From positions 1-25,018 of IMG/VR virus record IMGVR_UViG_3300012347_000364: a stretch of DNA of 25,018 nt; one strand, written 5' to 3'. A program made the position numbers and the translations under genes. Positions 130 through 204 of this stretch are shown here, piece by piece; position 1 is the stretch's first letter, and the number at the start of each line of letters is the position of its first letter. The stretch is from a virus. Taxonomy: Duplodnaviria > Heunggongvirae > Uroviricota > Caudoviricetes. The notes under the pieces are model-generated. The model had not been told where the DNA came from. It saw nothing but the letters and a program-made list of their open reading frames with translations, and did no database searches.

Positions 130-204
130 GGCTCTAGAGCATGAAGGCAATGCAAGCGTCTCTAAAGCGTATTGATCTGGGTTCAACTCCCAGTAGGGCC
201 ACCA
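130..204 (+). tRNA. Atypical tRNA, anticodon CTA (putative amber suppressor; a degenerate Arg-TCT is the alternative)
   Basis: Acceptor GGCTCTA/TAGGGCC, D-stem GCAT/ATGC, loop CT-CTA-AA, T-arm CTGGG-TTCAACT-CCCAG, CCA end. The anticodon stem is weak (A-A, G-U, C-G, G-C, U-G), and G8/G14 replace U8/A14. Confidence 0.75.

Follow-up and report, generated by a model that had tools for sequence, protein, structure and literature searches.

The window analysed here comprises the first 25 kb (25,018 nucleotides) of the IMG/VR record IMGVR_UViG_3300012347_000364, a single contig of 222,825 bp with 43% G+C assigned to a virus of the Caudoviricetes. Close to its left end lies a tRNA gene with the anticodon CUA, complementary to the amber stop codon. 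It is followed, 28 nt downstream, by a leader reading frame of 12 codons (positions 232-270) that is interrupted by an in-frame TAG, hereafter the gate, then by a hairpin and by a gene for a protein of 129 amino acids (aa), hereafter ORF129 (Table 1). The comparisons presented below suggest that these elements probably belong together as one cassette, composed of an amber-suppressor tRNA, a UAG-interrupted leader and a 129-aa gene whose Shine-Dalgarno (SD) sequence is locked in a hairpin.

Table 1. Features of the tRNA-leader-gene locus (positions in the window).
Feature	Position	Strand	Basis
tRNA, anticodon CUA (putative amber suppressor); CCA encoded; G8/G14; A73	130-204	+	ARAGORN; Rfam; alignment of 46 homologues
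Leader SD sequence, AAGGA, 9 nt before the ATG	218-222	+	Sequence reading; all parsed loci have an SD-like motif ahead of the leader start
Leader, part 1: ATG AAT AGG ATT CTT GCA, then the gate TAG (250-252)	232-252	+	62 of 64 spacers parse
Read-through extension: ATT ATA CAC CCT CCG TAA (Ile-Ile-His-Pro-Pro-stop), proposed pause site	253-270	+	Pro-Pro conservation; frame test
Hairpin; 5′ arm 269-274 (overlaps the leader stop) pairs with 310-315; SD core AAGGA at 308-312	269-315	+	Minimum free energy (MFE) folds
Gated gene; conserved, basic, all-helical 129-aa protein (ORF129)	321-710	+	432 homologues; AlphaFold2 (AF2) model

The presence of a tRNA with a CTA anticodon had been proposed in an earlier, sequence-only reading of the window. 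ARAGORN calls a tRNA with this anticodon at the same place, and the Rfam model RF00005 matches it with 47.8 bits against a gathering threshold of 29 (E value 1.6e-7). The acceptor stem, GGCUCUA/UAGGGCC, contains the pairs G1-C72 and U4-G69. G and A occupy positions 8 and 9. The D stem GCAU/AUGC encloses a D loop of sequence GAAGGCA, hence the G at position 14. The anticodon stem is weak (A27.A43, G28.U42, C-G, G-C, U31.G39) and closes a loop of 7 nt, C32 U33 C34 U35 A36 A37 A38; the variable loop has 5 nt, the T arm reads CUGGG-UUCAACU-CCCAG, and the discriminator A73 is followed by an encoded CCA. Inspection of the letters confirmed all the structural details listed in the earlier reading, namely the loop, the G8 and G14 residues, the weak anticodon stem, A73, G1-C72 and the CCA end. 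The 7-nt loop, the U33, the anticodon complementary to a stop codon and the purine at position 37 are those of a nonsense suppressor. The label 'Pyl' attached by ARAGORN names the anticodon only: tRNAs of the pylT type, which go with pylS/pylBCD genes, have a small D loop without G18G19, a 3-nt variable loop and a long anticodon stem, and in the body found here the D loop is standard and contains GG, the variable loop counts 5 nt and the T loop is of the TPsiC type. When the anticodon was masked and the molecule compared with 379 phage tRNAs, no isotype was prominent by similarity, 'Met-CAT' and several others sharing the votes of the top neighbours; only the opal member of the family, described below, was clearly closest. 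The genome holds exactly one CUA tRNA. Since no gene for GlnRS/GluRS, for a class IIb synthetase or for a Tyr/Trp synthetase was detected in the phage genome, a host enzyme would have to charge it.

Used as a DNA query, the tRNA yielded no homologue by megablast or blastn among GenBank phages, and an exact 23-mer was unmatched in IMG/VR. Homologues were therefore sought through the adjoining 129-aa protein, the sole route that worked. All 12 IMG/VR relatives found in this way carry a tRNA-CUA, directly upstream of the gene in 11 instances. A profile search returned 80 loci, 65 of them with a tRNA-CUA within 1.5 kb; in this set the tRNA usually lies 102-130 nt before the 129-aa gene and is often the only one there. 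An alignment of 46 distinct family members showed 93.6% of the cloverleaf cells to be paired, with changes on both sides in 18 of the 21 pairs and in all four stems. The covariation score was 0.696, as opposed to 0.231 in shuffled alignments, none of 500 shuffles scoring as high. U33, C34, U35, A36, A37, A38, the G1-C72 pair and the CCA end are invariant or nearly so, and the anticodon, set in a standard 7-nt loop, reads a stop codon in all 46 members (CUA in 45, UCA in one). The combination of G8 with G14, singled out in the sequence-only reading as a joint change, is real and recurs in 10 members, most others having U8/A14, which identifies it as a recurrent state of the family rather than an error. 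Likewise, 23 members lack pairing at 27-43 and 19 at 31-39, so that the weak anticodon stem is a family trait. A73 is frequent without being invariant, some members having G73. Together, these data make it quite likely that the CUA tRNA is a functional, conserved reader of UAG and a part of the three-part cassette.

The combination of tRNA, leader and gene was also found in three cultured phages belonging to different families, DSS3_MAL1, BUCT-ZZ01 and the N4-like phage OLIVR1. The tRNA of DSS3_MAL1 is annotated as 'Pyl'; the name of this phage points to Ruegeria pomeroyi DSS-3, and its record lists no host. In BUCT-ZZ01 (ON615601; host Synechococcus elongatus PCC 7942) the tRNA-CUA, unannotated, is located 150 nt before the ORF129 homologue; in the extracted locus (L093) it occupies positions 2266-2341, and a permuted transfer-messenger RNA (tmRNA), likewise unannotated, positions 3388-3806. 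The corresponding tRNA of OLIVR1 (MT234338; Agrobacterium), whose ORF129 homologue is 27% identical, has a CCCUAA anticodon loop and is annotated as tRNA-Val. The same loop is present in four other loci (L037, L056, L071 and L083); in these and in the OLIVR1 copy (L095:2324-2400) it folds as 6 or 8 nt, ARAGORN reads it as 'ct', 'ccta' or 'cct', and the leaders end with Pro-Pro-TAG.

The leader was found by comparing the spacers of the window, of Synechococcus phage BUCT-ZZ01 and of Agrobacterium phage OLIVR1. Parsing was carried out on 64 distinct spacers from the 80 IMG/VR loci, the three GenBank phages and the window. All but two consist of an SD sequence, a start codon, 0-9 codons, an in-frame stop, 1-9 codons and a Pro-Pro pair. 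The gate is TAG in 61 of the 62 parsed leaders, and in 55 of them a Pro-Pro-(x)-stop sequence lies 46-62 nt before the gene. The two prolines are written by 11 different codon pairs with varying third positions. The residue preceding them is R, K or H in 44 of the 55 loci, arginine being encoded by CGA, CGT, CGC or AGA; a few leaders of the family contain RSPP, RGPP or RDPP, and the leader of the window reads I-I-H-P-P-stop. Such codon variation at the prolines and at the arginine indicates that the peptide, not the RNA sequence, is what selection has acted on. In the 30 nt that precede the CCNCCN-stop sequence, TAG occurs 52 times in frame and 11 times out of frame; by the same test, only one of 22 TAA triplets and one of 32 TGA triplets are in frame. 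Thus, the leader frame is open except for TAG, the pattern expected if TAG is read as a codon there. The base following the gate is a purine in 59 of the 62 loci and an A in 48, a context reportedly found by Bossi and by Miller and Albertini, both in 1983, to favour amber suppression in E. coli. In 56 of the 62 loci, the gate is followed by the codon ATT, GTT, ATC, ATA or GTA. The coding strand of this genome contains exactly one such leader, and two complete relatives likewise have one leader and one CUA tRNA each, which points to a specific target. In a subfamily of three loci (L060, L062 and L088) the second stop is missing and the read-through frame, which includes RSPP, extends to a TGA that overlaps the ATG of the gene; this reads as classical translational coupling, with the same predicted dependence on read-through. 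In two further loci (L018:1177-1440 and L026:1195-1449), an open reading frame (ORF) of about 85 codons (81-83 aa) is inserted between Met-Ser-(Leu)-TAG and Pro-Pro-stop. No family was matched by this ORF in searches, and production of the whole small protein appears to depend on reading of the early TAG.

In nearly every locus, a sequence beginning at the final stop of the leader or just past it is complementary to the SD region of the gene, although from one lineage to another the stems have entirely different sequences. The arm facing the SD starts a median of 4 nt downstream of the first base of the final stop and 21 nt downstream of that of the gate. For 44 of 55 loci the MFE fold places the SD core in a helix. 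Cognate arms pair with -13.1 kcal/mol, compared to -7.2 kcal/mol for non-cognate ones, and none of 2000 permutations gave a value as low. In the window the hairpin has a second helix, formed by positions 277-282 and 302-307. The downstream gene belongs to a family of 432 clustered homologues, none of which is named. Its AF2 model (predicted local distance difference test, pLDDT, 93.6) is a helical hairpin plus a small bundle, and searches of Pfam, PHROGs, the PDB by Foldseek, VIA-align (wide), AlphaFold database (AFDB) clusters and the Atlas, by shape and by features, returned only generic helical hairpins or unnamed homologues. The longer fused forms of ORF129 amounted to one 333-aa protein with an XPG_I domain, too little to use, and no gene of the PTH2 family was found in the genome.

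A single locus, L047 (IMGVR_UViG_3300025438_000014), carries a tRNA of this family with the opal anticodon UCA, in the usual place (1317-1391). Its leader reads ATG TTG TGA GTA TAC GCG CCA CCT TAA, with TGA as the gate. The sole UCA tRNA of the family thus precedes the sole TGA-gated leader. The mean identity of this tRNA to the family is 62%, the members being 61% identical among themselves. Neither close relatives of L047 nor further opal variants were detected. This joint change of anticodon and gate is the most direct sign that the adjoining tRNA decodes the gate.

These data can be accommodated in a model in which the tRNA and the messenger would probably derive from one transcript, no terminator being present between them, and in which a ribosome would start at the leader ATG (position 232). 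If release factor wins at the UAG, the ribosome would come off about 17 nt before the hairpin, leaving the SD paired and the gene off. If the charged tRNA(CUA) wins, Ile-Ile-His-Pro-Pro would be translated and the TAA at 268-270 reached. Translation is slow at proline pairs, as described for RAPP, RxPP and HGPP (PMC7897499). Proline at the C-terminus, just before a stop codon, is reportedly a slow step too (work of Hayes, Bose and Sauer in 2002). We infer charging of the tRNA, a ribosomal pause at Pro-Pro-stop and, through this pause, unmasking of the SD: the paused ribosome would occupy the 5′ arm of the hairpin and free the SD, allowing a second ribosome to start the 129-aa gene. The geometry known from toeprints fits this scheme: counted from the first base of the P-site codon, the ribosome footprint extends about 15 nt downstream. 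A ribosome terminating at the UAG would reach approximately position 262 and leave the hairpin intact, whereas one having Pro-Pro or the stop in its P and A sites would reach 277-280 and would have to open the outer stem, which holds the SD. The gene would then be translated only when amber suppression works, so that the cassette would either delay expression by design or sense how the suppressor fares against release factor 1 (RF1). On timing, many relatives (among them L014, L024, L025, L030, L042, L045, L080 and L091) have an ATAAATA or CTAAATA motif 5-12 nt before the 5′ end of the tRNA. The ATAAATA-like motif resembles the T4 late promoter, which suggests that the cassette may be transcribed late. 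The window has TATATAAT instead, at positions 116-123, and genome-wide counts of the motif were not decisive.

We lean, by somewhat more than an even chance, toward a wider interpretation of the cassette. It would be a self-contained and mobile unit that has spread across unrelated phage families, T4-like, jumbo and N4-like phages included; the role of its tRNA would be primarily regulatory, with read-through as a switch or timer; the gate and the anticodon could be swapped jointly, from UAG/CUA to UGA/UCA; and ORF129 would be a so far undescribed effector tied to termination or to host takeover. The sequence-only reading had offered three options for the tRNA. Of these, a conditional suppressor comes nearest, in that the UAG reader is indeed conserved; the probable cis-linked target in the leader had been missed.

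The record is classed as complete, with direct terminal repeats, in IMG/VR, and an exact overlap of 80 bp is common to both ends. A tRNA-Val(TAC) is found at each end (window 4-78 and record 222749-222823); since both copies fall within the overlap, they represent one gene of a genome that was circularly assembled or is terminally repeated. The phage is T4-like, encoding a gp43-type DNA polymerase, UvsX and a gp41-type helicase. It stands at a distance from cultured phages, the polymerases of cyanomyoviruses sharing no more than 52% identity with its own. It has 38 distinct tRNA genes covering all 20 amino acids (the terminal-repeat copy of Val-TAC counted once), most of them in a cluster that spans the record ends from 212413 to 990, and it also encodes a permuted tmRNA. 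Greedy ORF calls, nearly all on one strand, take up 93.0% of the genome with the standard code, and 93.3% if TAG is taken as sense. TAG is the rarest stop, ending 29 of 357 greedy calls, many of these spurious; it makes up 8-9% of the stops both here and in two relatives with complete genomes (170.8 and 214.2 kb), which use the standard code too. The genome does not show the many genes with in-frame TAG that mark genetic code 15. The earlier statement that the phage uses the standard code, with no wholesale recoding, therefore stands: TAG usage was checked genome-wide, and reading TAG as sense gains a mere 0.3% of coverage. Three TAG-ended ORFs (16287, 102791 and 107465) with same-frame coding potential downstream were considered as cases of programmed read-through of normal genes and ruled out, as each downstream part has an SD and ATG of its own and one of the ORFs is spurious. 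No conserved read-through target besides the leader was detected in this genome.

Outside the window, the phage has a truncated RF1-like gene of 225 codons on the plus strand of the record (220729-221406, equivalent to L147:1204-1881). Read across the record ends, it lies some 1.5 kb ahead of the suppressor tRNA. It matches prfA in NCBIfam with 189 bits, has PPT at the PxT site and keeps the GGQ motif, domain 1 being absent. The gene contains an in-frame TGA at codon 36, aligned with a conserved Trp of Thermotoga RF1. This TGA is kept in all 66 distinct IMG/VR relatives of the gene, at codon 36 in 65 of them and at codon 35 in one. The RF1-like gene was considered as an obligate partner of the cassette and rejected, since it is present in only 3 of 16 cassette-bearing records.

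Several observations weigh against the cassette and its proposed mechanism. The loci are phylogenetically related, so that the counts given above are not counts of independent events, and the covariation of anticodon and gate rests on one locus, L047. A relative that is 75% complete (G001, the record of L026) has a TAG leader and no CUA tRNA among its 30 tRNAs, and a few loci have the odd anticodon loops of 6 or 8 nt (CCCUAA). The motif of the window, His-Pro-Pro, differs from the arrest motifs that have been characterised, RxPP and HGPP (PMC7897499). In the MFE folds, 11 of 55 loci leave the SD unpaired; the hairpin of the window itself is AT-rich and weak (-6.9 kcal/mol), and the fold of positions 205-335 is no better than that of shuffled sequences (z -0.89).

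Alternative explanations differ in how much of the locus they account for. That the tRNA is a decayed molecule or pseudogene, for instance a former Arg(TCT) tRNA with a shifted loop as the sequence-only reading had suggested, would agree with the weak anticodon stem and the unusual G8 and G14 of the window copy; this can practically be dismissed, given an Rfam score well above threshold, the compensatory changes and a fixed CUA among 46 homologues, with G8/G14 in 10 of these. In addition, the genome has its own tRNA-Arg(TCT) at 47448, which is dissimilar: it is absent from the 15 tRNAs closest to the CUA tRNA, all with at least 60% identity. Another possibility is that the ribosome always stops at the leader UAG and that the Ile/Val-x-x-Pro-Pro frame is re-initiated at the adjacent AUU or GUU, the tRNA being unrelated and serving as a nuclease decoy or as a signal for processing of the mRNA 5′ end. 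Work on T5 and T4 has described phage tRNAs by which anticodon nucleases are evaded or absorbed, and the codon after the gate is a near-cognate start in the 56 loci mentioned above. Re-initiation is nevertheless highly improbable, for it leaves unexplained the near-exclusive use of TAG as the gate, over TAA or TGA, the match of the one UCA tRNA with the one TGA gate, and the invariant U33-CUA-A37-A38 in an otherwise variable tRNA. The decoy for anticodon nucleases, also put forward in the earlier reading, is neither needed nor supported by the computational evidence.

Two further explanations accept the tRNA as a suppressor. It could represent a first step toward TAG recoding, the combination of a rare stop and a newly acquired suppressor with no dedicated function yet, as in the model of Borges et al. 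(10.1101/2021.08.26.457843); the low share of TAG among the stops here and in the two complete relatives would suit such a beginning. We give this very little weight, because the tRNA-leader-gene unit has been kept across very divergent phages (T4-like, jumbo and N4-like) and all three complete genomes examined use the standard code, which points to a stable function and not to a transitional state. Alternatively, the tRNA could be mainly a global amber suppressor that extends UAG-ended proteins of host or phage, or insures against amber mutations, the leader acting as a feedback sensor to a regulator, ORF129. This explanation shares the leader mechanism with the regulatory cassette and differs from it only in which role is primary. 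With TAG so rare among its own stops, the phage would suffer little from such suppression; the tmRNA and the UGA-gated RF1-like gene indicate that the genome meddles with termination in other ways as well, and suppressor tRNAs in standard-code phages are discussed in the same study (10.1101/2021.08.26.457843). A primarily global role is possible but unlikely in our view: the leader is the only conserved read-through target detected in the genome, the cassette is self-contained, with the suppressor often the sole tRNA nearby, and the RF1-like gene accompanies the cassette in few of the records.

The regulatory cassette combines traits of several known systems. Phages with genetic code 15 (crAss-like, Lak and others) carry genes for suppressor tRNA(CUA) (Borges, 10.1101/2021.08.26.457843; Yutin, PMC7886860; Peters, PMC9523058). 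The likeness consists in a phage-encoded CUA tRNA, a host with the standard code and a timing of expression thought to depend on the tRNA. In recoded phages, however, in-frame TAG codons occur in dozens of late genes, whereas here and in the two complete relatives, all with the standard code, the sole conserved in-frame TAG is in a 12-codon leader; moreover, the tRNA body described here (G1-C72, mostly A73) appears not to be Gln-like by E. coli rules, as the sequence-only reading had argued. A second likeness is to SecM-secA, ErmCL-ermC and the ApdA/ApdP/ApcA leaders with their R-A-P-P/G motif; RAPP/RAPG, RxPP and HGPP have been characterised as arrest motifs (Sakiyama et al. 2021, PMC7897499). 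Common to both are a small ORF that is located upstream of the gene and equipped with an SD, prolines near the end of this ORF that slow the ribosome or, here, would do so, and a stem-loop hiding the SD of the next gene. The leader of the window, which immediately precedes a hairpin in which the next gene's SD is paired, has the layout of this class, in which the stalled ribosome turns the next gene on, and the same logic is proposed here. The trigger would be different: a tRNA acting through UAG read-through would take the place of antibiotics or secretion activity. The leader is also far shorter, and its motif is mostly [R/K/H]-P-P-stop as opposed to the RAPP of the ApdA class. As in prfB, the gene of RF2, an in-frame stop would sense termination efficiency and set the output of a gene. 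In prfB, however, the stop is a UGA within the very gene under control, and ribosomes get past it by a +1 frameshift, whereas here it lies in a separate leader, would be read by a dedicated tRNA and would control a gene that is not a release factor. A further parallel in logic is a synthetic feed-forward 'leak dampener' (PMC7969014), a coherent arrangement in which a gene is on only when a co-expressed amber suppressor reads an early UAG; such gates are engineered and have the UAG inside the target ORF, whereas the arrangement seen here is natural and would operate through a leader and an SD hairpin. In the literature searched on phage suppressor tRNAs, arrest leaders and engineered gates, no natural leader gated by a suppressor tRNA was found. 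We would class the tRNA as a true phage suppressor outside a recoded genome, and the cassette as a form of leader-peptide translational control.

Suppressor tRNAs recur in standard-code phages, and papers describing such genomes mostly state that a target is not known (e.g. PMC9022506). The locus offers a specific one, a single UAG in a leader that would decide on translation of the next gene. If the regulatory reading is correct, it gives a concrete function to the long-unexplained suppressor tRNAs of standard-code phages and provides a natural case of gene control by nonsense suppression with a tRNA as the inducer, a principle so far confined to engineered circuits. Arrest-peptide switches would thereby gain a further kind of input signal, and the locus would mean that a rare stop can be exploited without recoding of the whole genome, possibly as a stepping stone to recoding. 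The occurrence of the cassette in three cultured phage-host systems makes these ideas directly testable.

Some additional features of the window and of related genomes were recorded. Beyond the gated gene and the tRNA cluster, a non-coding stretch of about 500 nt (window 998-1481) precedes a coding sequence (1498-2922) whose product has DUF2828 and DUF7788 domains and is labelled 'RNA-binding protein' in PHROGs. The partly complete relative G001 (whose bases 1-16000 correspond to L108) has eight tRNAs with the anticodon CAT. In another, complete relative (G009), ARAGORN reports at 15632-15705 a tRNA with the ochre anticodon TTA, which is without CCA, has G37 and may be a tRNA-like remnant. Finally, a tRNA-Ile(TAT) at 218120-218211 of the record is conserved in relatives (L009:1419-1513; G009, near 16827) and has a variable region of about 20 nt, giving a total length of 92-95 nt.

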